From contig JACKER010000007.1 of NCBI GenBank assembly GCA_020632925.1, forward strand, positions 52,910 through 116,909: DNA of 64,000 nucleotides, given 5' to 3'. Shown here piece after piece: positions 11,847-36,425 of the stretch. Within the stretch, counting starts at the first letter, position 1. Every line of letters starts with the position of its first letter. The notes under the pieces were generated by a model that did no database searches, had not been told where the DNA came from, and saw only the letters and a program-made list of their open reading frames with translations. Source of the stretch: Alphaproteobacteria bacterium. Lineage in GTDB: Bacteria; Myxococcota_A; UBA796; GCA-2862545. Made by a program: the position numbers and the translations under genes.

Positions 11847-11855
11847 GGAGCCCGT

Positions 11856-12821
11856 ATGCTCCTGTTCTCCCTCATCGGTTGTGGTGCGGGTGCGTCGCCC
11901 GCGGTGATGCCTCGCGCGGAGGCGCCCCGGGACTTCTGGTCCCACTGGGGTGACGGCAAGGCCGAGCTCGACGGATACGCGTACACCGCCCGACGCTACG
12001 GCGAGCTGCGGACCGGCGAGGAGATCCAGGTCTGGGTGACGGAGGACTTCACCGCCGGCCAGCTGGTGAAGTCGAACGGCGGGCACGGCGACGAGTTCCC
12101 CGTGCTCAAGCTCAACGACATCCGGCGCTTCCAGACCGGCATCTACGACTACCACCTGCTGCAGAGCGTGTTCGTCCGGGCGGACGGCAAGCAGGCGCTC
12201 GGGCTGCCGGTCAAGGAGGTGCTGTCGGTGGACGAGTGGTGCGGGGCGGCGTTCGAGGAGCTCGTCGTCCGTGACGGTGTGGTCCACGGCGTCGGCCACA
12301 GCTACTTCGACGGCGAGGGGGACCGCTCCTGGGAGGACGAGCGGGTGCCCGCGATGGGCGTGATGGCGGACGCCCTGCCCTACCTCGCGCGCGGCCTGCT
12401 GGGCGATCCGGTCGCGCCGGGCGCGTCGGTGGCCGTGCAGCTCCGGCACTCGCAGATCGATCAGCGCCTGGCACACCGCGAGCCCGCCTGGGTCCCGGCG
12501 ACGCTGTCCCGGGCCGCCGAGGTGGAGTCCGTCGAGGTGCCCGCGGGCACCTTCGAGGTCCGGCGCTTCGAGGTGACCACGGACGACCCGGCGTGCGGCA
12601 CGGCCAGCGGCATCGCAGCGGACGGCACGACCTGCAAGGCGACCTGGTGGGTGGAGGAGGCGGCGCCCCACCGGATCGTGCGTTGGTCGCGCGACAACGG
12701 GGAGGACGCCGTGCTCACGGGCTCGTTCCGCGGCGCCTACTGGTCGATGCACGGTGAGGGGCAGGAGGAGGCGCGGCGCCAGCTCGGCCTCGGCCTCCAC
12801 CCCTACGCGCCGGCTCCCTGA
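11856..12821 (+). CDS. Lipoprotein, hypothetical.
   Basis: Signal peptide plus lipobox LFSLIGCGAG. GC3 is high. No known domain. Lies 10 nt downstream of the preceding gene. Confidence 0.6.
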   Translation: MLLFSLIGCGAGASPAVMPRAEAPRDFWSHWGDGKAELDGYAYTARRYGELRTGEEIQVWVTEDFTAGQLVKSNGGHGDEFPVLKLNDIRRFQTGIYDYHLLQSVFVRADGKQALGLPVKEVLSVDEWCGAAFEELVVRDGVVHGVGHSYFDGEGDRSWEDERVPAMGVMADALPYLARGLLGDPVAPGASVAVQLRHSQIDQRLAHREPAWVPATLSRAAEVESVEVPAGTFEVRRFEVTTDDPACGTASGIAADGTTCKATWWVEEAAPHRIVRWSRDNGEDAVLTGSFRGAYWSMHGEGQEEARRQLGLGLHPYAPAP

Positions 12822-18374: not shown

Positions 18375-19156
18375 ACGCGCTGGAGGGCTGGGAGCGGCGC
18401 GACTTCGCGCACGAGGGGGCGTCCCGCGAGGTCTACGTGCGCGGGGAGGGCCCCGCGGTGGTCGTGATGCACGAGGTCCCCAACCTCCACCCGGGCGTGA
18501 TCCGCTTCGGGCAGCGGCTGGTGGACGAGGGCTTCCGCGTGTGGATGCCGTCGCTGATGGGCGTACCGGGGCGCCCGGTCTCGGTGCGCACGTCCCTGCG
18601 CTCGATCGGGCGGGCCTGCGTCTCGCGCGAGTTCGCCACCTGGGCGCTCGGGCGGACGAGCCCGATCACCGTCTGGCTGCGGGCGCTCGCGCGGCACGCG
18701 GGGGAAGGGCGGCCGGTGGGCGCCATCGGGATGTGCCTGACCGGTGGGTTCGCGCTGGCGATGGCGGTCGACGACGTGCTGGCCGCCCCCGTGCTCTCGC
18801 AACCGTCCGTCCCGTTCGCGCTCAGCCCGTGGCACGCACGTGACCTGGGCGTCAGTGACGAGGACCTGGGGACGTTGCGGCGCCGCTGCGCGGACGAAGG
18901 GCTGTGCGTGCTCGGGCTGCGGTTCTCCATGGACGCGATGGCGCCCGGCGCTCGGTTCCGTCGCTTGCGAGAGGAGCTGGGGGACGCGTTCCTCGCGGTC
19001 GAGATCGATTCGTCGCTCGGCAACCCGCACGGCATCCCGCCCTGGCACCACTCGGTGCTCGCCCACCACTACGTCGATCGGCCGGACCACCCGACGCGCC
19101 AGGCCGAGGACCGCGTCGTGGCCTTCTTCCGCGAGCGCCTCACGGCAGATCGCTGA
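18371..19156 (+). CDS. Dienelactone hydrolase family protein (Cys nucleophile).
   Basis: VVVMHEVPNLHPGVIRFGQRLVDEGFRVWMPSL and nucleophile motif GMCLTGGFAL. GTG start overlaps the upstream stop (GTGA). Confidence 0.8.
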   Translation: MNALEGWERRDFAHEGASREVYVRGEGPAVVVMHEVPNLHPGVIRFGQRLVDEGFRVWMPSLMGVPGRPVSVRTSLRSIGRACVSREFATWALGRTSPITVWLRALARHAGEGRPVGAIGMCLTGGFALAMAVDDVLAAPVLSQPSVPFALSPWHARDLGVSDEDLGTLRRRCADEGLCVLGLRFSMDAMAPGARFRRLREELGDAFLAVEIDSSLGNPHGIPPWHHSVLAHHYVDRPDHPTRQAEDRVVAFFRERLTADR

Positions 19157-20705
19157 CCGCTCCGGCCTCCCAGCCGACGGGCAGGCGCTGCGAGCGGTAG
19201 CTGTTCCAGCCGTCGGGCACCTCGTCCATGTCCGACGACAGCTCCACGTCCCACAGCAGCTCGCCGGTCTCGGGCACGAACTCGACGAGGCGGATCAGGT
19301 GCCGCCCCAGGCCGTAGTCCGCCAGGTAGCGTCCGTTCATCGCGATGACGCCGGCGAAGTTCCCGAGCACGTCGCCGTTGGGCAGGTGGTCGGCGTCCCC
19401 CATGTAGTCCCCGAACAGCCGGACCCCGGGGATCTCGAACTCCCACGCCTGTTCCACGGTCATCGCCTGCTCGTCGATGCGGTACTCGACCACCCGCGAC
19501 CAGGTCTCCAGCGCGCCCAAATCGTCCTCGCCGGTCCACGGGCTCGCCTGCCGGTTGCCGTTGTCGAACATCATGATCCGGTCGCCCCCGAACCACTCCG
19601 GCGCGTGCTGCTTGTACGGCCAGCGGAAGGGCTGCCCGACCGGCTGCAGGCGCAGGCTCTCAGACGCGGTCGGCCAGTTCGCGGGGTTCGCGAGGATCCA
19701 CCGGACGGTCCCGTCGAGGTCGAGCCCCGCGAGCGCGTCCTGCGCGCGCGAGGAGATCACGATGGCGTCGTTCTCCGGCGACCAGGCCACGCCGTTGCCG
19801 TGCACCCAGTCCTTGGGGTTGCCGACGAGCGAGGTGTACCCGATGCGTTCGTACGGGATGGCGGTCGAGTACGGGATCTCGCGGATCACCGTGCCGTCCT
19901 GGGCCAGGAGCACGATCTCGTCGTCGCGCACGGTCGCGTCCGCGCGCACCAGCGGGTCGTCGTAGCTGGCGGGGAAGTCCTGCACCGTGACGTTCTGCTT
20001 CGACATCGCGAGCATCGTCCCGTCCGGGAGGCGCTGCACGTCGTGGTGGAAGGTCGGGAGCGCGACGGGGATGGTCGTCCCCGAACCGCCGCCGGGCACC
20101 CACTGGCGCTGGATCCGCCCGAGCCAGTCGAGCTCGATGAGCGCCCCCTCCTGCGCGTTGCCGAGGAGCATCCCGTCGCTGCGCAGCTGCAGCTCGAGCA
20201 TCCGCGGGTCGCGGGCCCACCACCACACGATCTCGCCCTCGGGGCTCAGGACGATCTGCCAGGCCCCGACGCCGCCCGCGACCACGCCGACCAGGGTGTC
20301 GCCCGGCTCCATCGCGTCGGCGTCGAGCTGGTGAACCGTCACGTCGGGGAACTTCGGCGGCAGGCTCGCGGTGTGGAAGGTCAGCGTCCGTTCGGCGGTC
20401 GCTCCCTCGGCGCGCAACGTCAGGTGGACCTCGACGTCCCGGTCCGCGCGCATCCGCAGCAGCGGCAGCTCGTGCTCGGTGGCGGCGGGCAGCTCCACCG
20501 TCGTCGCGAGGTCGCCGTCGGACCAGGTGACCGTCGCCTCGCTCGGCACCTCGGTGGCGAAGGACAGCAGGCGGGCCAGCGGGACGGCGGGGTTCACGAG
20601 GGTGGCTGTCGGCTCGGCCGTCAACACCAGCTCCTCCGGCGGCGGAGGGGGATCGGTTCCCGCCGGCGGTCGCTCGCACCCGAGCACGGCCAGCGCCGCG
20701 ATCAC
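19140..20705 (-). CDS. Arylsulfotransferase (ASST)-family beta-propeller protein, lipoprotein/secreted.
   Basis: ASST-like blocks are present (FHHD..., WVHGNGVAWSP..., FDNGNRQ...). GTG start at 20705 gives VIAALAVLGC, a signal peptide plus lipobox. The listed 636-aa ORF has a spurious N-terminal extension that overlaps the amidotransferase gene. Confidence 0.65.
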   Translation of the reverse strand: MIAALAVLGCERPPAGTDPPPPPEELVLTAEPTATLVNPAVPLARLLSFATEVPSEATVTWSDGDLATTVELPAATEHELPLLRMRADRDVEVHLTLRAEGATAERTLTFHTASLPPKFPDVTVHQLDADAMEPGDTLVGVVAGGVGAWQIVLSPEGEIVWWWARDPRMLELQLRSDGMLLGNAQEGALIELDWLGRIQRQWVPGGGSGTTIPVALPTFHHDVQRLPDGTMLAMSKQNVTVQDFPASYDDPLVRADATVRDDEIVLLAQDGTVIREIPYSTAIPYERIGYTSLVGNPKDWVHGNGVAWSPENDAIVISSRAQDALAGLDLDGTVRWILANPANWPTASESLRLQPVGQPFRWPYKQHAPEWFGGDRIMMFDNGNRQASPWTGEDDLGALETWSRVVEYRIDEQAMTVEQAWEFEIPGVRLFGDYMGDADHLPNGDVLGNFAGVIAMNGRYLADYGLGRHLIRLVEFVPETGELLWDVELSSDMDEVPDGWNSYRSQRLPVGWEAGAVSDLP

Positions 20706-21538
20706 GCCGGCACCGCGGGGAACCGGTGGAAGCGCATGAAGGGGTCCACCGCCACGACCTCTCCCTCGGCCAGCCGCTCCCACGCGTTCTCCCCGAGGAG
20801 GGGTTCGCTCGAGACCAGCAGGTGGTTCACGTGTTGGCGGTGCGTCACCGGCGCCTCGCAGGTGGGTCCGAGGAAGGTGCAGGTCTCCCGCTCGGGGCAG
20901 CGCTGCTTCCACGTGGAGTAGCAGAGGTCCTTCCCGCCGTGGTGGGCGACCAGCAGCTCCCCGTCCGTCACCATCAACGTCAGCAGGCTGCGTCGCTCCG
21001 GGCTGTCCGCCAGCTCGCGCACGATCGCGACCGTCTCGCGCAGCGCGCACACCACGTCGTCGAGCGGCGTGCCGCGACGGTGCAGGTCGACGCGCTCAGC
21101 GAGACGCCCCAGGAACAGGTGGAACACGACCTCGCTGTCCGTGTCGCCCATGAGGAAGCGGCGGAACTTGGGGGCGACCTGCTCGACGAGCGCGTCCCGC
21201 ACCTCGGGGAAGGCGGGGATGTCGCCGTTGTGGGCCATCACCCACCGACCGTGCTGGAAGGGGTGGCAGTTGAGCGTGGACAACGCACCCTGCGTCGCCC
21301 GGCGGACGTGCGCGACGACGGTGTCGCTCGTGAGCAGGCCGCTGACGCGCTCGAAGAGGTGGTCGCTGCCCGCCGTGCCCGTCGACTTCAGGATGTGCGG
21401 CGATCCGGCGACGTAGTAGGCGACCCCCCAGCCGTCGGGGTGCTCGCGGGACTGGACGGCGAGCGCGTTGTCGGCGCTGCGGAGCGAGCGGTGGACCTGG
21501 CTCTGCAGGACGGAGCGGAAACCGAACAGGCGACACAT
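20702..21538 (-). CDS. Class II (Ntn-type) glutamine amidotransferase, YafJ-like.
   Basis: Starts MCRLFGF, giving the Cys2 nucleophile. Other motifs: DGWGVAYY, HVRRAT and NCHPF. ATG at 21538. Confidence 0.8.
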   Translation of the reverse strand: MCRLFGFRSVLQSQVHRSLRSADNALAVQSREHPDGWGVAYYVAGSPHILKSTGTAGSDHLFERVSGLLTSDTVVAHVRRATQGALSTLNCHPFQHGRWVMAHNGDIPAFPEVRDALVEQVAPKFRRFLMGDTDSEVVFHLFLGRLAERVDLHRRGTPLDDVVCALRETVAIVRELADSPERRSLLTLMVTDGELLVAHHGGKDLCYSTWKQRCPERETCTFLGPTCEAPVTHRQHVNHLLVSSEPLLGENAWERLAEGEVVAVDPFMRFHRFPAVPA

Positions 21539-21662
21539 GCCTGCCAGCCTAACAGGCCGCTCGTGACGTGTTCGGACCCGAACGTGTCGGATGACACGCG
21601 TAACAGTGTGTTGCGGTGCGGCGGACCAGGGGGCGGAGTAGGCCGACGGCCAGAGGTGATCC

Positions 21663-22046
21663 ATGGTGTTGCTGATGTGGCTCGCCGCGTGCGACGACAC
21701 GGAGTTCCCGGCGATCGGCGGGGAAGGCGTGGTCGGCGACACGTACGAGGACGTGCAGAAGGTGTTCGAGGCGGACTGCTACGCGTGCCACGGCGCCGCG
21801 TCCGCGCTCGGTGGGCTGGACCTCGAGACCGACGCCTGCGCCGCCATCGTGGGCGTGACGGCCGCGGGGTACGACGGGGAGCTCGTGGTGCCCGGCGACT
21901 CGGCCGCCAGCGTGCTGTGGACCAAGATGGCCGACACGAAGGAGTTCGGCGGGATCATGCCCCCCACGGGCGCGAGCGCGCAGGAGTCCATCGACACGGT
22001 CGCCGCCTGGATCGACCTCGGTGCCGACTGTGGGGGTGCGCGATGA
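21663..22046 (+). CDS. Small lipoprotein with one c-type haem-binding motif.
   Basis: Lipobox LMWLAACDD and CYACH (CxxCH). ATGA overlap with the next gene. Confidence 0.65.
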   Translation: MVLLMWLAACDDTEFPAIGGEGVVGDTYEDVQKVFEADCYACHGAASALGGLDLETDACAAIVGVTAAGYDGELVVPGDSAASVLWTKMADTKEFGGIMPPTGASAQESIDTVAAWIDLGADCGGAR

Positions 22047-22876
22047 TCGCGCTGCTGTCGGCCTCCGCGGCCTTCGCCCAGATCGCTCCCGAGTGCGCGG
22101 ACGTCGCCGCCGGCGACGCGCCCGGCTGGTACGTCGACGACCAGCACCAGCAGGACTTCCTGCTGAACTTCTTCGCGCTCGCGACGACCTTCTCCCCGAT
22201 CCACGCGCCCATCCCCGACGAGCCCGGCCACGGCGACGTGAGCCTCGAGCTCTCGCTGATCCCGCCGCTGTCCTGCGACCGCCGGCTGGTGCTGTCCCGG
22301 ACGAAGACGGAGGAGACGAACAAGGCGCCCATCCTCCCGCGTCCGCAGGGGCACTTCACGTTCCCCGAGATCGGCCGCTTCCGGCTCTACGGCGGTGCCG
22401 GCTACATCCCGCCGATCACCGTGTTCGGCACGCGCAACGTCATCGCGTCGGGAGAGGTCGGCTTCGGCTGGGAGTCGGAAGGGGGCTTGCAGCTGGCGGG
22501 TCGGTACCACTGGACGCTGATGAAGACCATCGCCGAGATCGCCGGACCCTTCGACCCCGAGAACGACCCCGTCGTGCTCGACTTCTTCTCGGGCTCGACC
22601 TTCGGGCTCGACCTGATGGCGGGCCTGCGGATCAAGAGCGTCATCCCGTACGTCTCGCTGGGCGTGACCGACGCGTCGACGTTCTTCTACATCGGTGACG
22701 ACGCCGTCGTGTCGAACAACCTGACGCCGTACATCGGCCCCGTCGCCTCGCTCGGCGCGCAGGGCTCGATCCAGCGCCTGGTCTTCGCCGGCGAGCTGTA
22801 CGCCGCGCCGAACACCTTCGACGCCTCCCTGGGCCACCTCTACACCGCCCGCGTCAGGGCTGGAGTGACGTTTTGA
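22043..22876 (+). CDS. Outer-membrane beta-barrel protein.
   Basis: Signal peptide MIALLSASAAFAQI, alternating amphipathic strands and a C-terminal ...RVRAGVTF ending in aromatic F. ATGA overlap upstream and TTGA overlap downstream. Confidence 0.65.
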   Translation: MIALLSASAAFAQIAPECADVAAGDAPGWYVDDQHQQDFLLNFFALATTFSPIHAPIPDEPGHGDVSLELSLIPPLSCDRRLVLSRTKTEETNKAPILPRPQGHFTFPEIGRFRLYGGAGYIPPITVFGTRNVIASGEVGFGWESEGGLQLAGRYHWTLMKTIAEIAGPFDPENDPVVLDFFSGSTFGLDLMAGLRIKSVIPYVSLGVTDASTFFYIGDDAVVSNNLTPYIGPVASLGAQGSIQRLVFAGELYAAPNTFDASLGHLYTARVRAGVTF

Positions 22877-23544
22877 CGACCCTGATCGCCCTGATGTCGG
22901 GTTTCGCCCTCGCGGAGGAGCCCACCGAGACCCCGGCCGAGGCCGCTCCCGCCGAGGCGCCCGCCGCTCCCGAGCCGCGCACCTGGAAGCTCGATCCGTC
23001 CGCGTCGACGCTGTTCGTCCTCGTGAAGCACGATCCGAACACGGCGCTGTCGGGCCTCGCCCACGACCACACCGTGGCGGCGACGGGCTGGTCGGGGACG
23101 GTGACCTGGACCGAGGGTGATCCGTCGGCCTGCAAGGTCGAGATCACGGTGCCGGTGTCCGGTCTCGTGATCGACCCGCCGGGGCTGCGTCAGCGCGCTG
23201 GCCTGGAAGGGGACACCCCGGACAGCGACAAGGCCAAGATCTCGGACAACATGTGGGGCAGCCGGCAGCTCGAGAAGGACGTCTTCCCCTCGATCTCGTT
23301 CGCGTCGACCTCGTGCAACGGGTCGGGCTCGGTCATCACCGTCGCCGGGAACATGACGATCCACGGCGTGACGAAGGCGGTCAGCCTGCCGATGACGATC
23401 AACGTCTCGGGCGACACGTTCTCCGCCAAGGGGACGATGCCGTCGACGGCGTCGGCGTGGGGCTTCCAGCCGTTCACGGCGGCCTTCGGGGCCATCAAGA
23501 ACCTCGACGAGCTCCAGTTCACGATCGACGTCCGCGGTCGCTGA
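22873..23544 (+). CDS. YceI-family protein (polyisoprenoid-binding fold), secreted.
   Basis: TWKLDPSASTLFVLVKH...GTVTWTEGDP...MTIHGVTKAV are typical of YceI. The TTG start is translationally coupled and gives the signal peptide MTTLIALMSGFALA. Confidence 0.75.
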   Translation: MTTLIALMSGFALAEEPTETPAEAAPAEAPAAPEPRTWKLDPSASTLFVLVKHDPNTALSGLAHDHTVAATGWSGTVTWTEGDPSACKVEITVPVSGLVIDPPGLRQRAGLEGDTPDSDKAKISDNMWGSRQLEKDVFPSISFASTSCNGSGSVITVAGNMTIHGVTKAVSLPMTINVSGDTFSAKGTMPSTASAWGFQPFTAAFGAIKNLDELQFTIDVRGR

Positions 23545-23607: not shown

Positions 23608-24945
23608 ATGGATACGGCCTCAGCGCCGGCGGCTGGAGTCCCGCTCGAGTCCGGTCGACGGGGACGGCCGACGTGCGTCTCACGGAGGCCGACCATGAAT
23701 GCACAGGACTGTGACCGCGCCGATGACGACCCGGAGGGCGACCCATCCCGCGCCTTCCTCGACACGCCGCTCGCTCCTCCCCGTCCCGTTCCCTCCCCGA
23801 CATCCGCACCGGACGCGCGCCAGCGCATCGAGGTGTTCCGACACACCCACTTCCCCGATGTCGGCGACGACCAGTGGGGAGACTGGCAGTGGCAGCTCCA
23901 GCATCGCTACCGCGACCTGAAGGGGCTCTCTCGGATCCTGACGCTCAGCGACGACGAGCTCACGACCATCCAGCGCATCGGTGGTCGGCTCCCCGTCGGC
24001 ATCACCCCGTACTACGCGTCGCTGATGGACCCGGACGATCCGTCCGATCCGCTGCGGATGACGATGGTGCCGGTCGAGGCCGAGCTCGTCCAGGGGCCCG
24101 GTGAGGCCGACGATCCGCTCGGCGAGGACGGCCACATGGTCGTGCCGGGGCTGGTCCATCGGTACCCGGACCGCGTTCTGTTCCTGGTGACGAACTTCTG
24201 CGCGACCTACTGCCGCTACTGCACGCGCGCCCGGCTCGTCGGCCACACCGGCGAGTACCACTTCAACAAGGCGCAGTACGAGAAGGCGATCGAGTACATC
24301 GCGGCGCATCCGGAGGTCCGCGACGTGCTGCTCAGCGGCGGCGACCCCCTCACCATGGGGGACGACCGCCTCGAGTGGCTGCTGGAGCGGCTCCGCGCCA
24401 TCCCGCACGTCGAGTTCCTGCGGATCGGCACGAAGGTCCCCCTGGTGCTCCCGCAGCGCGTCACCGAGAAGCTGACGTCGATGCTGAAGCGCTTCCACCC
24501 GCTGTGGATGAGCGTCCACGTCATGCACCCGAACGAGCTCACGCCCGAGGTCGCGCAGGCGTGCGACCGTCTCTCCAGCGCGGGCATCCCGCTCGGGAGC
24601 CAGACGGTGCTGGTCCGCGGCGTGAACGACGACGTGGAGACGATGCGCCGCATGGTGCACGGGCTGCTCAAGATCCGGGTTCGTCCGTACTACCTGTACC
24701 AGTGCGACCCCATCTCGGGCTCCGCCCACCTGCGCACGCCGATCGAGAAGGGCCTCGAGCTGGTGGCCGGGCTGCGGGGCTTCACGACCGGCTACGGCGT
24801 GCCGCAGTTCGTCGTGGACGCGCCGGGCGGCGGCGGGAAGATCGCGCTGCAGCCCACGTCCGTGGTGGGTCGGGACGGCGACGACGTGCTCCTCCGCAAC
24901 TACGAGGGCAACGTCTTCCGGTACCGCGACCCGGTGGGGGCCTGA
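23608..24945 (+). CDS. kamA: Lysine 2,3-aminomutase (KamA/AblA family) radical SAM enzyme.
   Basis: CATYCRYCTR (CxxxCxxC radical SAM motif), PLP-Lys motif APGGGGK, and YYLYQCDP. The length fits KamA rather than EpmB. An alternative start is ATG at 23695. Confidence 0.9.
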   Translation: MDTASAPAAGVPLESGRRGRPTCVSRRPTMNAQDCDRADDDPEGDPSRAFLDTPLAPPRPVPSPTSAPDARQRIEVFRHTHFPDVGDDQWGDWQWQLQHRYRDLKGLSRILTLSDDELTTIQRIGGRLPVGITPYYASLMDPDDPSDPLRMTMVPVEAELVQGPGEADDPLGEDGHMVVPGLVHRYPDRVLFLVTNFCATYCRYCTRARLVGHTGEYHFNKAQYEKAIEYIAAHPEVRDVLLSGGDPLTMGDDRLEWLLERLRAIPHVEFLRIGTKVPLVLPQRVTEKLTSMLKRFHPLWMSVHVMHPNELTPEVAQACDRLSSAGIPLGSQTVLVRGVNDDVETMRRMVHGLLKIRVRPYYLYQCDPISGSAHLRTPIEKGLELVAGLRGFTTGYGVPQFVVDAPGGGGKIALQPTSVVGRDGDDVLLRNYEGNVFRYRDPVGA

Positions 24946-27413: not shown

Positions 27414-29159
27414 ATGTTCCGCATCCGTCGGCTGTTCGACGACACGCTGCCGCTGGACGCCCGCGAGATCGCGCAGGTCCAGGACATCCTCCGCGCGCGG
27501 TTCTCGGCCGTCCGGGACGACGAGATCACGAACCTCCCGGCGCGGCTGCGCGACCCGGTGAAGTACGGCTGGCGCTACCTGCTGTTCGTCGCGGACGACC
27601 TGCGCGGCCAGGTGCGCGGGTTCGCGCTGATCGCGCACGATCCGAAGCTCGAGTTCGTCTACCTGGACTGGATCGCCAGCGGCAACGGCGCGGCGGGCGG
27701 CGGCGTCGGCGGTGCCCTGTACGAGCGGGTCCGCGACGAGGCGAAGGCGCTGCGCGCACGGGGCGTGCTGTTCGAGTGCCTGCCGGACACGAAGGGGGAC
27801 GTGAGCGACGCCGAGCTCAAGGAGAACGCCGCGCGGATGCGGTTCTACGAGCGGTACGGCGCGCGTCCGATCGTGAACAACGACTACCGGGAGCCCGTGG
27901 GCGACACGCCCGACCCCGGGTTGCCCTACCTCATGCTCGACCCGCTGGACGGCGAGCCGTTGGGCAGCGCCCGGGCCCAGCGCGTGGTCGCCGCCATCCT
28001 CGAGCGCAAGTACGCGTACCTGTGCCCGCCGGACTACGTCGCGAGGGTGGCGGCGTCGTTCCGTGACGACCCGGTGCAGCTCCGGCCCTTCCGCTACGTG
28101 AAGCCGGGCGCGGCGTCCCCGTCGTCCGAGACCCCCCGCGCCGACATGCTCGTCGATCTCGTGGTCAACGAGCAGCACGACGTCCACCACGTCCGCGACC
28201 GCGGCTACGTGGAGGCGCCCGTCCGCGTCCGCGCCATCCTGCGGGAGCTCGAGCCGAGCGGGCTGTTCCGCCGCGTGGAGGCGCGCAGCTTCCCCGATCG
28301 CCACATCCGGGCGGTCCACGACGGCGCCTTCGTCGACTACCTCAAGCGCGTCTGTGCCGGGATCCCGCCCGAGCGCAGCGTCTACCCCTACGTGTTCCCC
28401 GTCCGGAACGCCGCGCGGCCCCCCAAGGAGCTGTCGGTCCGCGCGGGCTACTACTGCATCGACACGTTCACCCCGCTCAACGCGAACGCGTACCTGGCGG
28501 CGCGTCACGCCGTCGACTGCACGCTGACCGCGGCGGACGCGGTGCTCTCGGGCCGCCGGCTCGCCTACGCCCTCGTCCGGCCGCCGGGTCACCACGCCGA
28601 GCGCGCGACCTTCGGCGGCTTCTGCTACTTCAACAACGGCGCGGTGGCGGCGCACTACCTCTCGCAGCACGGCCGCGTGGCCATGCTCGACGTGGACTAC
28701 CACCACGGCAACGGGCAGCAGGACATCTTCTACGAGCGCGCGGACGTGCTGACCGTCTCCCTGCACGGCCACCCCTCGTTCGCCTACCCGTACTTCAGCG
28801 GCTTCGCCGACGAGAAGGGGAGGGGTGCGGGCGAGGGGATGAACGTCAACTTCCCACTGCCCGAGACGCTGGACGGCGCGGGGTACCGGACGGCGCTGCG
28901 GAAGGCGGTCGGCGAGGTGCGTCGCTTCTCCCCGAACTTCCTGGTGGTCGCGCTGGGGCTCGACCCCGCGAAGGGCGACCCCACGGGGACCTGGACGCTG
29001 GCCCCGGTGGACTTCCGGCGGAACGGCGAGATCATCGGCGCGCTGCGCCTACCGACGCTGGTGGTCCAGGAGGGCGGCTACCGGACGCGCTCGCTCGGGA
29101 ACAACGCGCGGAGCTTCTTCGAGGGGCTGGTGGCCGGGATGTACGGGAGCGATCGATGA
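27414..29159 (+). CDS. Fusion protein: N-terminal GNAT-like acetyltransferase fold plus C-terminal HDAC/acetylpolyamine amidohydrolase (AcuC/AphA-type) deacetylase.
   Basis: N-terminal block LDWIASGNGAAGGGVGGALYERV resembles GNAT motif A. The C-terminal half has PPGHHAERATFGGFCYFNNGAVAA, DVDYHHGNGQQDIF and LVVQEGGY, which are HDAC zinc- and substrate-binding motifs. Confidence 0.8.
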   Translation: MFRIRRLFDDTLPLDAREIAQVQDILRARFSAVRDDEITNLPARLRDPVKYGWRYLLFVADDLRGQVRGFALIAHDPKLEFVYLDWIASGNGAAGGGVGGALYERVRDEAKALRARGVLFECLPDTKGDVSDAELKENAARMRFYERYGARPIVNNDYREPVGDTPDPGLPYLMLDPLDGEPLGSARAQRVVAAILERKYAYLCPPDYVARVAASFRDDPVQLRPFRYVKPGAASPSSETPRADMLVDLVVNEQHDVHHVRDRGYVEAPVRVRAILRELEPSGLFRRVEARSFPDRHIRAVHDGAFVDYLKRVCAGIPPERSVYPYVFPVRNAARPPKELSVRAGYYCIDTFTPLNANAYLAARHAVDCTLTAADAVLSGRRLAYALVRPPGHHAERATFGGFCYFNNGAVAAHYLSQHGRVAMLDVDYHHGNGQQDIFYERADVLTVSLHGHPSFAYPYFSGFADEKGRGAGEGMNVNFPLPETLDGAGYRTALRKAVGEVRRFSPNFLVVALGLDPAKGDPTGTWTLAPVDFRRNGEIIGALRLPTLVVQEGGYRTRSLGNNARSFFEGLVAGMYGSDR

Positions 29160-29632: not shown

Positions 29633-29740
29633 TCGGCGGCCGCCGAGGGGTGGCGCGAGGTGTCCCTCCATCTGGCGCGCGCGGTCGGTCGGCCGGGTGG
29701 GGTCGCCGGGTACGACACGAGCGTCCCCCTGGAGGTCTCC

Positions 29741-32059
29741 ATGCGCTCGGTCGTCCTCGTCGCTCTCGCCACCCCCCTGACCGCGTGGGCGGTCCCCTCC
29801 TACAGCGGAGACGCGCCAGGGACGCGCATCACCACCTCGGACCCGAACTACGACATCGCCACCGAGAGCCTGGTGGTCGGTGGCACCGTGCACGGGGTGT
29901 CGGCCGGTGCCCTGAGCACGAACTTCCGCGTGTTCTTCAACGGGATCGACGGCAGCATCTCCGGAACCCCGACCCAGGCGGTCGTGTCGGCCACCATCCC
30001 GATCGGCCCGGAGTTCGGCGGCAACCCCGGCCCGTGGCCGTCCTGGCTGCCGTTCGGGGACATGATGACCGAAGAGACCCTGGTGCCCAAGCCGCTGTTC
30101 TTCGAGGTCATGTCCAAGGCGACCAGGCAGGTGGTGTTCCGCGACCGGACCACCCTGTACGACCTGCGCCAGGACGGGCTGGTGCAGAACGCGTTCGCGG
30201 TCGTCGACGTGGAGGACGGGATGGTCGCGCAGCTCACCCCGATGGGCCTGGACGCGCTGATTCCGGTCCACGAGGCCGATCTCCCGTTCCCGGACGCGGC
30301 AGCGCTCGACACCGAGCTCCACGCGCGGCTGACCACCCTACCGGTCCTGGTCAGCGTCCCGACCGACGTGTGCCGCAACCTGGAGACGCTGGCCGCGAGC
30401 GAGCCCGGCTGGCTGCTCCTGCCCGAGTACGTGGAGGCCCAGGCCTCGGCCGCAGCGGCCTACCTGCTGTTCGCCGACGGCACGGTCACCTCCTGCGTCC
30501 AGACCCCGCCGCTGCCGTTCGACTTCGAGGTGTGCGTGAACCTCATCGAGGCCGAGGCCCTCGACCTGAACGTCGCCGGACAGAGCGTGGCCGCGCTCGA
30601 GTTCGGGGTCCCCACGCGCACGCTACAGTCCACGGTGGACCTCGACGGGCCGTCGGCCGTCTTCGAGCTCCGCTTGCGCGACCTCGAGGTCCGCTACCGG
30701 CACGGAGCGCCGGGGTGCCTCCCCACCATCGACCCGGTCCACCTGGACAACGGCATCGACGTCGGCCAGAACACCATCGACTCGACCGCATGGCTGGACG
30801 ACTGGGCGCGCTGCCCCGGCTCGATGGCCGACGCCGTCGCCGTGGCCTCGGGACCCCTCCTCCACGATCTGTCGGTGGGCCTCGACCCGGAGACGATCGA
30901 CGTGAGCGCCGGCGACCACGCGGCGTTCGATCTGCCGTCGCCGAGCTGGACCGCGTCCGGCACCTGCGTGGAGTCCTGGCTCAACCCGTCCGCGGCGGCC
31001 CTCCTCCCCGGGTTCGAGGTCCCGCTCGAAGCCGCGCTGGGGAGCGCGGTCGACGACGCCTGGCCCCGCACCGCCGAGGCCAGCGCCCTCGACGCGCTGC
31101 TGCAGCCCTGGGAGATCGGCACGCGCCCCCTCCCCGGCGCGGTGCTGACCGCCGACCTGACCGAGCTCGCCACCGACCCGCTGCCGGGGATGGTGACGCG
31201 CTGGCGTACCTCGTCCGAGCCCACGGACCCGCTCAGAGCCAGCCGCATGCTGGCGCCCTGGCTGTTCAAGGCTCCGCGGGCCTACGGGTTCGACGTCTCC
31301 GACGACGCGCTCGATCCCGACGGTCACCCGTTCGACAGCTCGTTCTCGGTCTCCACCACCCACCTCAACGCCCAGCTGCGCACCCGCAACGCGACGCATG
31401 GCGCGTGGCTCGATCTGCGTCCGAGCTACGCCGACCTGGGCCTTCCCTCCTCCGGCGGGAACCCCTCGAACGCCCCCGCGCCGCTCACGGGCGCCAACCT
31501 CGGCCAGTGGTTCTCCCCGTTCTCCAGCTACGGCGCGACGACCTTCACGATCACCGTGACCCCGACCCTCCCGCCGCAGGTGTTCATGGACCCGGACACG
31601 AGCTTCCCCGCCGGCGAGACCCCGCTCGCCTTCGCCTACCCGGCGCTGCGCGTGGACTTCGCCACGGTGGGGATCCCGTCGAGCGTGGTGGCGACGGTGT
31701 GGATCGACCTGTGGGACACCGACCTGGTGCTCGACCTGGACGGCTCCGGGGTCGTCCGCGCCGCGGTGGACACCCCGAGCTGGAGCTCGGTGGCGACGAT
31801 GACGCCCCAGGGGTGCCCGATGGCGCCGCTGCTGGACGTGCCGGCCTTCCAGAACTCGTGCGACGACGACTTCGCGGCCCACGTGCTGGCGCTCGTGCAG
31901 CCCTCCATCCTGGCCTCGACCGCGGCGGTGCTCGACGAGATCGCCGCGCTGGACGGCGTGGACACCCCGACCGGGGGCACCACCAGCCGGCGGCTCGACC
32001 CCATGCTGCAGTACCAGCACGGGATGTACGTCCGCTGGTTCGGGCAGCTGGTCCCCTGA
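29741..32059 (+). CDS. Large secreted hypothetical protein.
   Basis: Signal peptide MRSVVLVALATPLTAWAVPS. RBS GGAGG lies upstream. GC3 is strong over 2.3 kb. No known domain. Confidence 0.6.
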   Translation: MRSVVLVALATPLTAWAVPSYSGDAPGTRITTSDPNYDIATESLVVGGTVHGVSAGALSTNFRVFFNGIDGSISGTPTQAVVSATIPIGPEFGGNPGPWPSWLPFGDMMTEETLVPKPLFFEVMSKATRQVVFRDRTTLYDLRQDGLVQNAFAVVDVEDGMVAQLTPMGLDALIPVHEADLPFPDAAALDTELHARLTTLPVLVSVPTDVCRNLETLAASEPGWLLLPEYVEAQASAAAAYLLFADGTVTSCVQTPPLPFDFEVCVNLIEAEALDLNVAGQSVAALEFGVPTRTLQSTVDLDGPSAVFELRLRDLEVRYRHGAPGCLPTIDPVHLDNGIDVGQNTIDSTAWLDDWARCPGSMADAVAVASGPLLHDLSVGLDPETIDVSAGDHAAFDLPSPSWTASGTCVESWLNPSAAALLPGFEVPLEAALGSAVDDAWPRTAEASALDALLQPWEIGTRPLPGAVLTADLTELATDPLPGMVTRWRTSSEPTDPLRASRMLAPWLFKAPRAYGFDVSDDALDPDGHPFDSSFSVSTTHLNAQLRTRNATHGAWLDLRPSYADLGLPSSGGNPSNAPAPLTGANLGQWFSPFSSYGATTFTITVTPTLPPQVFMDPDTSFPAGETPLAFAYPALRVDFATVGIPSSVVATVWIDLWDTDLVLDLDGSGVVRAAVDTPSWSSVATMTPQGCPMAPLLDVPAFQNSCDDDFAAHVLALVQPSILASTAAVLDEIAALDGVDTPTGGTTSRRLDPMLQYQHGMYVRWFGQLVP

Positions 32060-32076
32060 GCGAGAGTCCCGCAGGA

Positions 32077-33102
32077 TCAGCCGCTGGGCTTTCTCGGGGG
32101 CTGGGCACGCCAGGCGTCGGGCGTCGTCCCGGTCCAGCGCTTGAACGCCCGGTGCAGCACCGAGGGCTCGGCATATCCGAGGCGCCAGGAGATCTCGGCG
32201 ATGTCGGCGCCCGCCGTCAGCAGCTGCTCGGCGGCGACCCGGCGCACGGTGTCCAGCTCGTCGGCGAAGCTCGTGCCCTCGGCCTTCAGGCCGCGCTGCA
32301 GCGTGCGTGGGCTGGTTCGCAGCGTGCTGGCGACGGTGACCAGGCTGGCCCCGCCGAGGAGGTGGTCGGCGAGCGCCTCCTCCAGCACCCCGCGGACCCG
32401 CTGGCCGACGCCGTCGCCCTCGCGCAGCGCCTCCAGGTCCCGGGTGGCCTGGGCCTCGAAGTGCTCGGCGAACATCGGGTTGCCCGTGACCACCGGGCTC
32501 GCCATCGTCTCGCGGCTCATGGCCAGGTACGTCTGCCCGGCGCCGAAGCGGACCGGGCAGTCGAACCACGCCTCGTACTCGGACAGATCTCCCTCGCGGG
32601 GATGCTCGAACACCGCCTCCACCAGCGGCACGCGGCGGCCCAGGGCCCGGTTCGCCGCCAGCAGACCCGACGCCAGGTTCTCCTCGCGCAGGTGCACCGA
32701 GGCGCGGCGCTCGGGCCGGCGGAGCTCGTAGCGGTACCGCGGGGGTTCGGCGGCGCGGTCGAGCGCGCAGCGGTAGGCGCTGGTCCACAGCCGCGAGAAC
32801 CGGGCGAGCCGGTCGATGGCCTGCCCGAAGTCGCGGCTGGCGAAGAACAGCAGGCCCGGCAGGGCGATGGTCTCGAGATCGTGGAGGCGGGCGACGTACA
32901 GGCCCAGGCGGTCGTCCCCCAGCAGATCCTCCGCGGCCTCGAGCAGGGCCTCGACGTGTGCCCACGGCTGGCGCACGCGCAGCAGTGACGTGGACGCGGG
33001 GACGCCCGCCAGCTCGAGCAGCTGGGCGCGGGGGGCTCCGAGCTCGACCAGGTTGTCGATCAGCCCGCGCACCAGGACGGAGGCGACCATCGGTTCGGAC
33101 AT
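32077..33102 (-). CDS. AraC-family transcriptional regulator.
   Basis: C-terminal AraC helix-turn-helix: ADIAEISWRLGYAEPSVLHRAFKRWTGTTP. Confidence 0.85.
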   Translation of the reverse strand: MSEPMVASVLVRGLIDNLVELGAPRAQLLELAGVPASTSLLRVRQPWAHVEALLEAAEDLLGDDRLGLYVARLHDLETIALPGLLFFASRDFGQAIDRLARFSRLWTSAYRCALDRAAEPPRYRYELRRPERRASVHLREENLASGLLAANRALGRRVPLVEAVFEHPREGDLSEYEAWFDCPVRFGAGQTYLAMSRETMASPVVTGNPMFAEHFEAQATRDLEALREGDGVGQRVRGVLEEALADHLLGGASLVTVASTLRTSPRTLQRGLKAEGTSFADELDTVRRVAAEQLLTAGADIAEISWRLGYAEPSVLHRAFKRWTGTTPDAWRAQPPRKPSG

Positions 33103-33164
33103 CGCGGGAGCCTACACCGACTCTCCGTCGGCGCGACACGCAGGGCCGCGCCACCTTCCATCGA

Positions 33165-33458
33165 CTACCGGGAGCAGCCTGCCCAGACGCAAGTGGGTGG
33201 GCTCGTCCGTCCGACGCACGAGTAGCACCCGAAGCCACAGAAACCGGTTGTGTCGCAGGGAATCAGGCACGTGCCCGAGGTGGTCGTCGCCACCCCGGAG
33301 TCGTCGAGCTCGTGGGCGCAGACCAGGCCCTCTCTGCAATTGTGGTCGAACAAGCACGGTTGGCCAGCCCCTTCCACGGTCTTCGTCCCTGGATGGTCGG
33401 CGCAGCCGAGCGCCGCGAGCGTCCAGAACGTTGGCGAGGGGAGCCGGAGCCGGTCCAT
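33165..33458 (-). CDS. Small Cys-rich lipoprotein, paralog 1.
   Basis: MDRLRL...TLAALGC lipobox, followed by GxGQPC and about 10 Cys. ATG overlaps the upstream stop (TGATG). Confidence 0.55.
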   Translation of the reverse strand: MDRLRLPSPTFWTLAALGCADHPGTKTVEGAGQPCLFDHNCREGLVCAHELDDSGVATTTSGTCLIPCDTTGFCGFGCYSCVGRTSPPTCVWAGCSR

Positions 33459-33745
33459 CACCTGGAACAGCCAGCGGGGACGCACACAGGTGTAATCGTG
33501 GTCGTCCGGCAAAACGCGCACCCTCTGCACTGGTCCGCTTCGTTGCAGGGGATCTGGCAGGTGTTCGAAAGGATGGACTCATACTCGGGAGCTTCGTCCA
33601 GGGCACAGACCGTCCCCTCTGCACACTCATCGTTGGACGCACAGGGCTGGCCGACGCCAGGCACGGTCGGGGTCGCTGGATCGTCGCTGCAGCCGGATGC
33701 CAACGCCAGGCACATCGACAGCAGCCGCTCTGGTCTCACTGCCAT
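33458..33745 (-). CDS. Small Cys-rich lipoprotein, paralog 2.
   Basis: MAVRPERLLSMCLALASGC lipobox, VPGVGQPC and about 10 Cys. Cys spacing matches the downstream paralog (C..IPC....C.GC..C......P.CV.AGCSR). Confidence 0.55.
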   Translation of the reverse strand: MAVRPERLLSMCLALASGCSDDPATPTVPGVGQPCASNDECAEGTVCALDEAPEYESILSNTCQIPCNEADQCRGCAFCRTTTITPVCVPAGCSR

Positions 33746-33757
33746 GAGGTGCTCCAG

Positions 33758-34444
33758 TCAGACGACCTGCGCCGATCCCAGCCAGTCCGCGTAGTTCGTG
33801 CGCGCCGCCGCGTTCGCCGCCACCGCCGTCAGTGCGGGGTTGCGGAGCACGGCGACCGGCTCGAGCACCTGCTGATCGAGGAGCAGCGGGACCCGGTGGT
33901 GGGTGGCCTCGAGGCGGGGGGCGGCGTCCCCGAGGGCCGCGCGGAGGAACTCGTCCACCAGCTCGGTGCAGTACAGCTCGTCGTTGTCCGGCTGGAAGCC
34001 GTAGTCGTAGGGCCGGCCGATGAGCGAGATCACGCGCTCGAGGCCGACGGAGAGCCGGTCGTCGGGCAGGTCGGGGTGCCGCACGACCACCCAGGTGTCC
34101 CGCTCGTAGCGGTCGAGGAAGCGGGCGAGGGGCTCGCGGATCACGCCGACGTCGCGGTCCAGGGCGCCGAACGTCCGCTTGACCGCGTCCCACATGGCGC
34201 CGAACCAGCCGCGCATGGTCTTCTCGGTGGCCATCGCGTGCACCAGCGCGCCCTCGCCCACGTGGACGCCGACGTGCGTGAGCCGGCCGTTGTTCCCGAG
34301 GAGCACGAAGTCGCCGGCCCGCAGCACGCGGAGCATGTCGTCGGTCGACGCCGCCGTGAGGCGCGGCAGCCCGTCGACGTCGTCCTTGTGGCCGCCCACC
34401 GTCCACGCGATCTTGAGCAGCACGCGCAGCAGCCAGGTCCTCAC
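33758..34444 (-). CDS. YiiX/YaeF-like permuted papain-fold (NlpC/P60 superfamily) protein.
   Basis: GDFVLLGNNGRLTHVGVHVGEGALVHA...ELYCTELVDEF. ATGA overlap with the patatin gene stop. Confidence 0.55.
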   Translation of the reverse strand: MRTWLLRVLLKIAWTVGGHKDDVDGLPRLTAASTDDMLRVLRAGDFVLLGNNGRLTHVGVHVGEGALVHAMATEKTMRGWFGAMWDAVKRTFGALDRDVGVIREPLARFLDRYERDTWVVVRHPDLPDDRLSVGLERVISLIGRPYDYGFQPDNDELYCTELVDEFLRAALGDAAPRLEATHHRVPLLLDQQVLEPVAVLRNPALTAVAANAAARTNYADWLGSAQVV

Positions 34445-35946
34445 GTCTCCTCCCGTCGGCCGGCGAAGAAGGCCCGCGTCGAGCGACGGCCGGTCTCCAG
34501 CAGGAACTCCCGGTCCCGCGCGTCGAGCTCGAAGTCGGTGGTGCTCACGTAGTCGGTGTCGATGGGCACGGTCCGCGTCCGGTCGTCCGGGACCAGCGAG
34601 ACCCGCCGCAGGTGCATGAGCAGCGTGTTGAACACGGTCGACACGAACGTCGACATCGAGCGCGGCTCGCTCCGCGCCAGCCCGAGGTGGGCGGTCAGGT
34701 CCACGTGGCGGCTGTCGATCGTGCGCACGATCTCGTCGTAGCTCACCTTTCCGTCGCCGTTGTGATCCATCGCCGAGAAGATCGCGTCGATGTCCTGGGT
34801 CTCGAAGAGGAGCTGAGCGTCCTGGTACGTGAGCCGCCCACCCGCGAACAGCCCCTGGACCTCCTTCCGATCGACGCGACCGTCCCCGTCCTCCTCGAGC
34901 TCGGCGAGCGCGTCGACCAGCCGCTGGGCCGCGCCGTCCAGCGCCTCGCGGAGGCGGGTGTGGGCCTCGAGGCGCTTCTCGGACTGCGCCCGGCTGCGCG
35001 AGAGCTCGGTGTCAGGTCGCTCGGGGGGCCGCATGTCGGCCGTCATCCACCACTCGCTCGCGTCGCCCAGCTCGGCCTTGTCGAACACGGTGAACCCGAG
35101 GGTGGCCGGGTTCCGGGGGCTGAAGCGCACGGCGTCGTGCGTGAGCTCCGTCACGCGGTCCAGCGGCCGCAGCTTGCGCAGGAACGTGTCCTGCCGGTCC
35201 ATGGACAGCCACCAGCCGTCGAAGGCGTGGACCGGGAAGTTGCAGAGCAGCCCGCCGTCCGTGTACAGGTCGGCCTGCCCGCCGGTCTGCTCCCCGCCGC
35301 GGACCACGCGGTAGGGCACCATCAGCACGGGCAGCGACATGGACATGCCGACCGCCAGCCGCACGGGCATGTCGGGCGTGGTCTTGGGGTGGCAGTACTC
35401 GGTGCACATGCGCGTGAGGTTGGTCACGGGCACGCACAGCTCGCGGCCGCACCGCTCGAGCACCTGGGCGAAGGTCACGTCCTCGCTGCCCGTCCGCTCC
35501 TTCAGCCGCTCCCCGAGGAACTCCAGCAGCCGCGAGCCGGGGTTCAGGCCGTAGATGGTGACCATGTTCCACAGACCGCTCACCATGCCGAAGCGGGCGT
35601 CGCGCATGACGGCCTCGAGGTCCGTCTCGGCGAGCATCTGCGTGAGCTCCTGCGAGGACATGCCGATGGCGAGCATGGCGGCGAGGAAGGAGCCCGAGGA
35701 GGCGCCCGCGACCCGCAGGACGTGCTTCGGGTAGATGCCCTCCTGCTCGAGGACCTCGATGGCGCCCATGTAGGCGATGCCCTTCGCCCCTCCGCCCTCG
35801 AACACGATGTTGGTGTACGGCCAGCGGGGGTGCGGCTCGCGCGTGGGCTTGACCGGCGGGCGCTGCAGCGCGCTCAGCGGCGGGAGCGTGGGCGGCCCGA
35901 TGCGCGACAGGTCGATGTTCCAGGGCTGCAGGACGACGCCGGCCAC
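34441..35946 (-). CDS. Patatin-like phospholipase with two C-terminal EF-hand calcium-binding loops.
   Basis: FEGGGAKGIAYMG (oxyanion loop), GASSGS (GxSxG) and DGG. EF-hand loops: DEDGDGRVDRKE and DHNGDGKVSYDE. GTG start at 35946 overlaps the upstream TAG (TAGTG). Confidence 0.8.
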   Translation of the reverse strand: MAGVVLQPWNIDLSRIGPPTLPPLSALQRPPVKPTREPHPRWPYTNIVFEGGGAKGIAYMGAIEVLEQEGIYPKHVLRVAGASSGSFLAAMLAIGMSSQELTQMLAETDLEAVMRDARFGMVSGLWNMVTIYGLNPGSRLLEFLGERLKERTGSEDVTFAQVLERCGRELCVPVTNLTRMCTEYCHPKTTPDMPVRLAVGMSMSLPVLMVPYRVVRGGEQTGGQADLYTDGGLLCNFPVHAFDGWWLSMDRQDTFLRKLRPLDRVTELTHDAVRFSPRNPATLGFTVFDKAELGDASEWWMTADMRPPERPDTELSRSRAQSEKRLEAHTRLREALDGAAQRLVDALAELEEDGDGRVDRKEVQGLFAGGRLTYQDAQLLFETQDIDAIFSAMDHNGDGKVSYDEIVRTIDSRHVDLTAHLGLARSEPRSMSTFVSTVFNTLLMHLRRVSLVPDDRTRTVPIDTDYVSTTDFELDARDREFLLETGRRSTRAFFAGRREET

Positions 35947-36425
35947 TACTCCTCCAGGCGGAGCTCGTACGTGATCACGGTACCCCCGAGCGGACGGGGC
36001 TCGACCGCGACGACGCCAGCGACCGGCCGGTCGGGCCCGGAGAGGGCGCGGATCGCGGCGCGCACGTCGTCCTCGGTGAAGGTCCCGCGCAGCGGCGCGC
36101 GGTGCAGGCAGCGTCGCCCGCCGTCGGCGCACATCGTCGCCACCAGCTCCGGGTCGGCGTCGTCCTCGAGTGCCAGCGCCACGCGCACGGCGGCGTCGAA
36201 CTGCCGGCGTTGGAGCTCCGGGTCCACCGGTTCTTCCGCGGGCTCGGGCTCGGGTGCCGGAGCGGGCGAGGGGAGCGCGGGCGGCGGGAGCGCACGCACC
36301 GCGGGTGGCGCTGGCACCGAGCGCTCGGGTGCTCGGGGCTGCCGCGTCCCCCACAGGAGCGCCAGCGCGCCGAGGAGCACCCCGACCAGCAGGGCCAGGG
36401 GCCACCAGCGGCGCGCTGGAGACAT
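35946..36425 (-). CDS. Membrane-anchored hypothetical protein with a Pro-rich linker.
   Basis: N-terminal TM helix WWPLALLVGVLLGALALLW and a PAPAPEPEP linker. GC3 is high. Confidence 0.5.
   Translation of the reverse strand: MSPARRWWPLALLVGVLLGALALLWGTRQPRAPERSVPAPPAVRALPPPALPSPAPAPEPEPAEEPVDPELQRRQFDAAVRVALALEDDADPELVATMCADGGRRCLHRAPLRGTFTEDDVRAAIRALSGPDRPVAGVVAVEPRPLGGTVITYELRLEE

Follow-up and report, generated by a model that had tools for sequence, protein, structure and literature searches.

A conserved single-chain fusion of a GNAT-fold domain and an acetylpolyamine amidohydrolase-type deacetylase, encoded in a putative β-lysine operon of uncultured bacteria

The osmolyte Nε-acetyl-β-lysine is made by AblA and AblB, a lysine 2,3-aminomutase and a GNAT acetyltransferase encoded in one operon (in methanogens; yodP-kamA in Bacillus). 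In the Ngg/AsnO system, a GNAT that is fused to an ATP-grasp peptide ligase contributes to an N-acetylated peptide solute, N-acetylglutaminylglutamine amide (NAGGN), and glutathionylspermidine synthetase/amidase forms and also cleaves an amide of a small amine within one chain, which allows a regulated steady state. Acetyl protection and deprotection have precedents in N-acetylglutamate/ArgE, in the acetylase variant of the diaminopimelate pathway and in bialaphos. Opposing chemistry is also encoded by AcuA and AcuC of Bacillus, a GNAT and an HDAC-family deacetylase that are encoded together as two distinct proteins and target a lysine in acetyl-CoA synthetase. AcuC belongs to HDAC cluster 2c (PMC11532494); only the bacterial cluster-4 ApaH enzymes deacetylated acetylpolyamines, and their active sites are narrowed by an N-terminal L1 loop together with an extended L2 loop (PMC11532494). 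The solved acetylpolyamine amidohydrolases (APAHs) are single-domain proteins of 340-350 residues. Here we describe, in a 64,000-nucleotide stretch of contig JACKER010000007.1 (positions 52,910 to 116,909 of the forward strand; hereafter the window), a gene whose predicted product joins a GNAT-fold domain to an APAH-type deacetylase, and which lies in an apparent operon with genes for a lysine 2,3-aminomutase, two ATP-grasp ligases and a second GNAT. With a probability of roughly 0.55, we consider the fusion protein to be a bifunctional small-molecule N-acetyltransferase/deacetylase that would act on β-lysine-derived amines, its two domains serving distinct nitrogens or steps.

A preliminary description of this DNA had read the gene as one polypeptide in which a GNAT-like part precedes the complete HDAC/APAH signature, and this reading is borne out: the 581-residue open reading frame (ORF) is intact, both domains are recognised and all of the listed motifs are present. 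The translation carries a glycine-rich block, GNGAAGGGVGGALYERV, at residues 91-107, and the HDAC motifs PPGHHAERATFGGFCYFNN, DVDYHHGNG, GLDPAKGD and QEGGY at residues 390-408, 426-434, 515-522 and 552-556, respectively; Pfam Hist_deacetyl (PF00850) spans residues 266-571 (E=2.9e-75). The window has a G+C content of 72% and contains many long spurious ORFs. From its sequence, we nevertheless conclude that the fusion is a genuine, conserved gene and no chance ORF of high-GC DNA. The best 120 database matches align over 96-100% of its length with 59-77% identity, and an identical NCBI entry (MCB9683478.1, from a metagenome-assembled genome, MAG) is annotated as 'histone deacetylase family protein'; no NCBIfam model matches the fusion protein. 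The ATG at 27414 lies two nucleotides past the stop codon of the upstream gene, the ATG of the downstream GNAT gene shares bases with the fusion's stop codon (ATGA), and all fusion homologs share an MFRIRR N-terminus in the alignment. We therefore take this ATG to be the correct start, and not that of a longer GTG ORF from 26838. The identical NCBI protein is labelled 'Alphaproteobacteria bacterium' and a cluster mate (at least 90% identity) 'Myxococcales bacterium'; with the 72% G+C and the occurrence of related cassettes in Polyangiaceae MAGs, the source MAG may belong to a myxobacterium that was wrongly binned or named.

We compared the N-terminal domain (N-domain) with known GNAT sequences and structures. 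Matches to Pfam over residues 50-149 were all sub-threshold, at 19.8 bits for PF13508 (cut-off 27) and 18.8 bits for PF00583 (cut-off 20.7), and weak precomputed matches to the same two families are present in the N-domain region of some fusion homologs. Profile-profile comparison, which answers the search proposed in the preliminary description, revealed similarity between the N-domain family and the family of the downstream canonical GNAT (E=4e-6), with GGGVGGAL paired to QGQGLGRAL in motif A and RFYERYGA paired to AFYERCGY in motif B. An AlphaFold2 model of fusion residues 1-235, built with 35 homologs, has a mean predicted local distance difference test score (pLDDT) of 93.5, and the modelled N-domain has the order β1-α1-α2-β2-β3-β4-α3-β5-α4-β6-β7 followed by two extra helices, as expected of the GNAT α/β fold. 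In this model, the motif A loop A94-G-G-G97-V-G99 sits at the β4-α3 junction, consistent with a pyrophosphate-binding loop of the type Q/R-x-x-G-x-G/A. Motif B, N138-AARMRF-Y145-ERY-G149, has the form N-x(6)-Y-x(3)-G and puts Tyr145 at the usual position of the GNAT general acid. Fold searches likewise point to GNAT similarity. Taken from these comparisons together, the N-domain has a predicted GNAT fold, in agreement with the GNAT motif-A-like GxG block noticed earlier in the first ~200 residues. It is not a known non-catalytic extension of HDACs, because solved APAHs and HDACs align with the fusion only from residue ~258-266.

Conservation was assessed across 38 family proteins, comprising 18 from operon-linked loci and 20 from stand-alone copies of the gene. 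Residues G97, G99, Y103, D125, R141, F144, Y145 and E146 are invariant in all 38, and position 121 in β5 (E121 in the window protein) is Glu or Asp in all 38. Position 138 is Asn in every operon-linked protein (18/18) and in 14 of the 20 stand-alone copies, that is, in 32 of 38 overall. The first residue of motif A is Ala/Thr in the window protein and of the Arg/Gln type in the divergent members P0166 and P0229, such divergent members having a canonical Q/R-G-x-G-x-G motif A. We considered the alternative that the N-domain is no transferase at all, and that it binds acyl-CoA or substrate as a regulatory or scaffolding domain that gates the deacetylase, which would then be the sole catalytic part. 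The sub-threshold Pfam scores and the lack of Gln/Arg at the start of motif A in the window protein would fit such a role, as would the position of the N-domain and linker directly before the L1 loop, the active-site cap in APAHs, and the presence in the next gene of a separate canonical GNAT. However, the GxG loop, Tyr145, the acidic residue 121 and Asp125 are kept in all 38 proteins, which represent more than ten taxonomic groups, Asn138 is kept in most members, and divergent members have a fully canonical motif A; degenerate GNAT domains usually lose such active-site residues. We therefore regard an inactive GNAT-like binding domain, which the preliminary description had left as an option, as improbable. 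The N-domain instead looks like a working acyl-CoA N-acyltransferase of predicted catalytic activity, with every sequence feature required for acetyl-CoA binding and acetyl transfer to an amine, that is poorly modelled by Pfam, and represents a GNAT subfamily without a curated model.

Between the N-domain and the deacetylase lies a conserved helical linker in which K199, Y200, Y208, S215, R224 and Y228 are invariant in the family alignment, and whose helices at residues 185-199 and 206-214 are modelled at pLDDT >90. The catalytic set of the deacetylase domain comprises H393-H394, D426/D428/H430, D517 and Y556, with D428, H430 and D517 as zinc ligands, and none of the catalytic residues varies among the 38 proteins in either genomic context. 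The closest solved relatives by sequence are APAHs, with PsApaH (9GKZ, E=2.5e-68) followed by the Marinobacter (6PHR), Burkholderia (3MEN) and Mycoplana ramosa (3Q9B) enzymes (~204-234 bits, E 1e-59 to 1e-68); the top Foldseek matches are the same proteins, at 35-38% identity over ~310-350 residues. These enzymes share with the fusion the fold, the HH pair, the D-x-D-x-H and D zinc ligands and the Tyr of EGGY, whereas the fusion adds 245 residues of GNAT and linker in front. The alignment with ApaH crosses the region of the L2 'polyamine-specificity loop' without large gaps, and R331 pairs with R95, the L2-loop Arg of PsApaH. By contrast, the APAH gatekeeper motif P-I-S that follows the third zinc ligand is replaced by an invariant P523-T524-G525, the Asp of the R95-D163 dimer salt bridge corresponds to the non-conserved A398, and, unlike in the solved APAHs, the L1 region has an invariant signature of its own, H255..H258-H259..R263-G-Y265. 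In the full-length model, confidence is low in the L1 and L2 segments, which fits mobile lids. Its sequence makes the HDAC half a divergent member of the ApaH branch, and its substrate is most likely a small linear acetylated amine. A transacetylase mechanism through this domain was rejected, since to our knowledge the zinc hydrolases of the HDAC family form no acyl-enzyme intermediate. In vitro, PsApaH removes acetyl from peptides and from acetylated AcsA as well (PMC11532494), so the HDAC domain may also have protein substrates.

The fusion is not a one-off. The preliminary description had proposed looking for homologous fusions in databases, and we found at least 120 near-full-length relatives. 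When the N-domain by itself was searched against 1.84 billion cluster representatives (clusters at 50% identity), 453 clusters matched with E<=1e-3 and 237 with E<=1e-10, and the domain begins at residue 1 in nearly all of them. Complete proteins are commonly of two sizes, ~575-600 residues (GNAT-HDAC) and ~740-760 residues (GNAT-HDAC-GNAT), with rare proteins of ~236-240 residues that consist of the N-domain alone. The ~750-residue form is found in many Desulfobacterota MAGs and in some others (loci L003, at 10001-12253, L006, L007, L009 and L044; proteins P0035, P0071, P0074 and P0096), and in the alignment its C-terminal domain is the counterpart of the stand-alone GNAT encoded downstream of the fusion in the window. 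A scan of one genome per species yielded 40 fusion loci, every one from a MAG, in Pirellulales/Planctomycetota, several Desulfobacterota, Bacteroidota, Ignavibacteriales, Gammaproteobacteria, Polyangiaceae, Hydrogenedentota, Omnitrophota, Nitrospirales, Rhodospirillales and Pontiella. Judged by these sequences, the fusion is a conserved family that is widespread in uncultured bacteria, with representatives in about ten phylum-level groups.

In the window, the fusion is the fifth gene of what its sequence indicates to be a translationally coupled six-gene operon (Table 1), whose junctions are, in order, a 5-nucleotide gap, a GTGA overlap, a TGATG overlap, a 2-nucleotide gap and an ATGA overlap. 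The last gene is the stand-alone GNAT that had been noticed after the fusion and whose identity the Pfam match supports. The first encodes a KamA-family radical-SAM enzyme, for which AblA (TIGR03820) is the best NCBIfam model (460.7 bits, below the cut-off of 525.4); its match to the KamA subfamily model (TIGR00238) exceeds the cut-off (363 bits; cut-off 199). Compared with the Clostridium enzyme (PDB 2A5H, E=7e-129), it keeps Asp293 and Asp330 (in YQCD and VVDAPGGGGK), which we take to bind the ε-ammonium group of lysine. Because this pair is conserved, the enzyme should yield β-lysine and not β-glutamate, and a glutamate or arginine aminomutase was rejected on the same ground. An EF-P β-lysylation system was likewise rejected, since EpmB gives a weaker match than the other five KamA-family NCBIfam models with a match, and an EpmA-like gene is lacking. 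The aminomutase ORF has, at 23608-23838, a low-complexity N-terminal extension of ~75 residues relative to the Clostridium enzyme that is rich in Pro, Ala and Asp; an alternative ATG at 23695, with GGAGG just upstream, is perhaps the real start.

Table 1. Positions of the fusion gene, its domains and motifs, and other genes in the window
Feature	Position	Residues of fusion	Strand	Basis or remark
GNAT-HDAC fusion gene	27414..29159		+	uninterrupted 581-aa translation
N-terminal GNAT-fold domain (predicted)	27414..27941	1-176	+	
Motif A, TGGGVGGALY-type	27690-27734	93-107	+	
Motif B, N138..F144-Y145-E146..G149	27825-27869		+	
Conserved helical linker	27942..28148	177-245	+	alignment, model
HDAC/APAH-type zinc deacetylase domain	28149..29159	246-581	+	PF00850
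KamA-family radical-SAM lysine 2,3-aminomutase	23608 (or 23695)..24945		+	NCBIfam, 2A5H
Cys-rich CxxCxxCC (YkgJ-like) protein, 172 aa	24951..25469		+	PF03692 sub-threshold
ATP-grasp ligase 1 (Ddl-like), 326 aa	25466..26446		+	PF07478 E=4e-27
ATP-grasp ligase 2 (Ddl-like), 321 aa	26446..27411		+	PF07478 E=9e-19
Second, canonical GNAT acetyltransferase, 158 aa	29156..29632		+	PF00583 E=1e-14
Patatin-like phospholipase with EF-hands	34441-36405		-	
YceI-like protein	22873-23544			

The third and fourth genes of the operon encode Ddl-like ATP-grasp ligases. Ligase 1 starts at a GTG that follows GGGAGGG and overlaps the preceding stop codon, and ligase 2 at an ATG that likewise overlaps the stop codon before it; they carry the catalytic motifs R-V-D...E-L-N and R-V-D...E-V-N, respectively, and ligase 2 shares 40-49% identity with the second ligases in related loci. 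With the R-x-D...E-x-N residues kept, both are probably active as amide ligases. We rejected the possibility that they are true D-Ala-D-Ala ligases: their best NCBIfam scores against Ddl (159 and 97 bits) fall far under the cut-off of 243, and GGxSxEREVS, which we take to be the N-terminal D-Ala1-site motif of Ddl, is absent from both. The second gene, which encodes a CxxCxxCC protein (PF03692, E=1.1e-3 and 20 bits, below the cut-off of 23), is masked by longer spurious ORFs, with the result that ligase 1 appears 160 residues too long in a mechanical ORF list; homology of ligase 1 to its relatives begins at about residue 160 of that long ORF. The CxxCxxCC gene has homologs of 46% identity in the same place, from aminomutase to ligase 1, only in L003 and L013, and the L003 copy is a called gene with the same faint Pfam match.

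The downstream GNAT is similar to PDB 2R7H (E=2.5e-39). Among the six NCBIfam matches listed at E<=0.01 for this GNAT there is no β-lysine acetyltransferase/AblB model, and the best is RimI, at 37 bits and below the RimI cut-off. The 2R7H structure is a structural-genomics entry, presumably from Desulfovibrio G20, labelled 'putative D-alanine N-acetyltransferase', a label that was probably guessed from Ddl-like neighbours; if so, it would hint at a cultured, genetically tractable carrier of the cassette. Outside the operon, the regions 18744-22876 and 29660-34440 contain long ORFs without a Pfam or NCBIfam match (among them 18744-20921, 20726-22876, 29660-32059 and 32816-34552).

We next compared 44 related loci. 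A five-component core of aminomutase, two ligases, fusion and GNAT is present in 21 of them, in Planctomycetota, Desulfobacterota, Bacteroidota, Ignavibacteriales, Polyangiaceae and Omnitrophota, with unrelated flanking genes. In Bacteroidota (L015, L017, L019, L022 and L034) the order is aminomutase, fusion, ligase 1, ligase 2, GNAT. The recurrence of the core amid unrelated flanks, in an order that differs in Bacteroidota, is the signature of a self-contained, horizontally mobile pathway. The only extra genes that recur near the cassettes are the CxxCxxCC gene (the window, L003 and L013) and anion-type permeases, and a conserved exporter was not found in the cassette among the loci examined. 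The permeases (L003, L015, L017, L028 and L038) are of the SulP/STAS type in four loci and CitMHS/ArsB-like in three; in L003, where the permease regions lie at 7551-8858 and 18198-20078, the ligases are separated from the fusion by a permease gene and an IF-2B-family gene. The fusion and ligases of L017, L020 and L034 align in several separate fragments, suggesting frameshifts that are either sequencing errors or pseudogenes. In L013, a proteobacterial cassette, the aminomutase (4326-5294) is only 36% identical to that of the window, compared with 57-72% elsewhere, and may be a different KamA-family member with another substrate.

The gene content suggests a route in which the aminomutase would convert lysine to β-lysine, and the two ligases would then couple β-lysine through amide linkages to itself or to one or two partners. 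Which amino groups (β, ε or the partner's) carry acetyl, and at which stage, would be set by the three acetyl-handling domains; the GNAT and HDAC domains of the fusion would act on different nitrogens or at different steps, in a protect-ligate-deprotect scheme or in regiochemical editing. Distinct substrates or nitrogens are favoured because action of both domains on the same bond would amount to acetyl-CoA hydrolysis unless regulated. The operon resembles AblA/AblB in the first step only: with two ATP-grasp ligases, a deacetylase and a second GNAT fold in addition, the window operon probably leads beyond acetyl-β-lysine, and probably to a small β-lysine-containing compound. Ngg/AsnO differs in that its GNAT is fused to an ATP-grasp enzyme and not to a deacetylase, and in having neither an aminomutase nor an HDAC-type hydrolase. 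The likeness to glutathionylspermidine synthetase/amidase is an analogy of logic only, the domains of that enzyme (ATP-grasp and CHAP amidase) being unrelated. The activity of either domain of the fusion, the substrate, the product and the order of the steps are predictions from sequence, and two ideas put forward in the preliminary description, channelling of the substrate and an acetyl switch acting on the product of the pathway, are pure conjecture.

The same gene content is open to the explanation that the two domains share a single target amino group on one solute, such as free β-lysine or a β-lysyl peptide, as a homeostatic toggle that is reciprocally regulated, for example by the acetyl-CoA/CoA ratio or by osmotic state, and that sets how much of the solute is charged and how much neutral, as other bifunctional synthase/hydrolase enzymes do. 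The two domains always occur in one chain and keep their active-site residues in every context; the aminomutase resembles AblA, the source of the precursor of the osmolyte Nε-acetyl-β-lysine; and the lack of a conserved exporter fits an intracellular product. In addition, several of the source MAGs bear 'HK-STAS' isolate names, which we take to refer to a saline activated-sludge project. However, many of the loci belong to MAGs of soil or freshwater origin, we identified neither a regulatory element nor a sensor domain, the downstream GNAT does not resemble AblB, and two ATP-grasp ligases and a second GNAT would be superfluous for a simple acetyl-β-lysine cycle. A toggle of this kind thus appears doubtful, and we continue to favour a bifunctional enzyme whose domains act on distinct nitrogens or steps; the fusion of the second GNAT into the same chain in the ~750-residue homologs also speaks for this preferred reading.

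Several observations weigh against it. In about 20 of the 44 loci, neither an aminomutase nor a ligase gene lies within 8 kb of the fusion (L010, L012, L016, L018, L021, L023, L024, L027, L029-L033, L035-L037 and L039-L042), and these stand-alone copies also have no second GNAT within that distance. The active-site and loop residues of both domains are largely the same in the stand-alone copies as in the others, by the 38-protein comparison. The genes beside these copies are unrelated (glyoxalase, argininosuccinate synthase, RodA/PBP2, histidine kinase, glycosidase), and no conserved neighbour was found among them, only antisense shadow ORFs and unrelated genes. Since around half of the loci have no β-lysine or ATP-grasp genes nearby, the role of the fusion is not strictly tied to the β-lysine pathway, and the substrate may be a general metabolite or even a protein lysine. 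The N-domain scores below the Pfam gathering thresholds and its motif A begins with Thr/Ala in place of Gln/Arg; the downstream GNAT has no AblB match and the aminomutase falls under the AblA equivalog cut-off. Two domains acting on the same amine would bring about net acetyl-CoA hydrolysis, so that regulation or distinct substrates would be required. We also found no biochemical data in the literature for any member of the family.

If the substrate is a protein lysine, the fusion could be a writer and eraser of protein acetylation, a fused analogue of AcuA/AcuC with a target such as an acyl-CoA synthetase or an enzyme of the operon. The many genomes in which the fusion stands alone are consistent with this, JGI labels homologs 'AcuC-like/GNAT', and the activity of PsApaH, the closest solved relative, on peptides and acetylated AcsA in vitro (PMC11532494) points the same way. 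Against this, the HDAC domain groups with the cluster-4 APAHs and not with AcuC-type enzymes, in a comparison for which there is no solved AcuC structure. It also retains the L1/L2 loop region that limits APAH sites to small linear substrates, and no conserved candidate target gene lies beside the stand-alone copies. We consider a protein-directed role quite improbable, and small β-lysine-derived amines remain the preferred substrates.

We found no description of the fusion or of the surrounding operon in the full-text literature, in a search that did not cover the Iyer/Aravind 2009 survey of ATP-grasp/GNAT amidoligase operons; GNAT-deacetylase fusions are not mentioned in a survey of bacterial deacylases (PMC11532494) or in a large review (PMC8556138). 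While both domain families are well known, their apparent combination as an active GNAT and an APAH-type deacetylase in a single chain, and the operon of aminomutase, double ATP-grasp and GNAT genes, appear to be new. More tentatively, and with clearly less confidence than we place in the bifunctional enzyme itself, the operon may be a ribosome-independent route to an N-acetylated β-lysine di- or tripeptide or oligo-amide that has spread horizontally across about ten phylum-level groups; the fusion would then be a new class of acetyl-cycling enzyme that puts acetyl on and takes it off the product, and that serves, in genomes without the pathway, as an autonomous homeostat of amine acetylation. 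If this is true, candidates for the product are a new compatible solute and a nitrogen-rich metabolite. A crystal structure (2R7H) exists for a homolog of the accompanying GNAT, and the genes are all short and self-contained. If both domains of the fusion are active, it would serve as a compact model of how acetyl groups transiently protect small amines or neutralise their charge, and the operon would point to a β-lysine-derived metabolite of many uncultured bacteria of sediment, sludge and soil.

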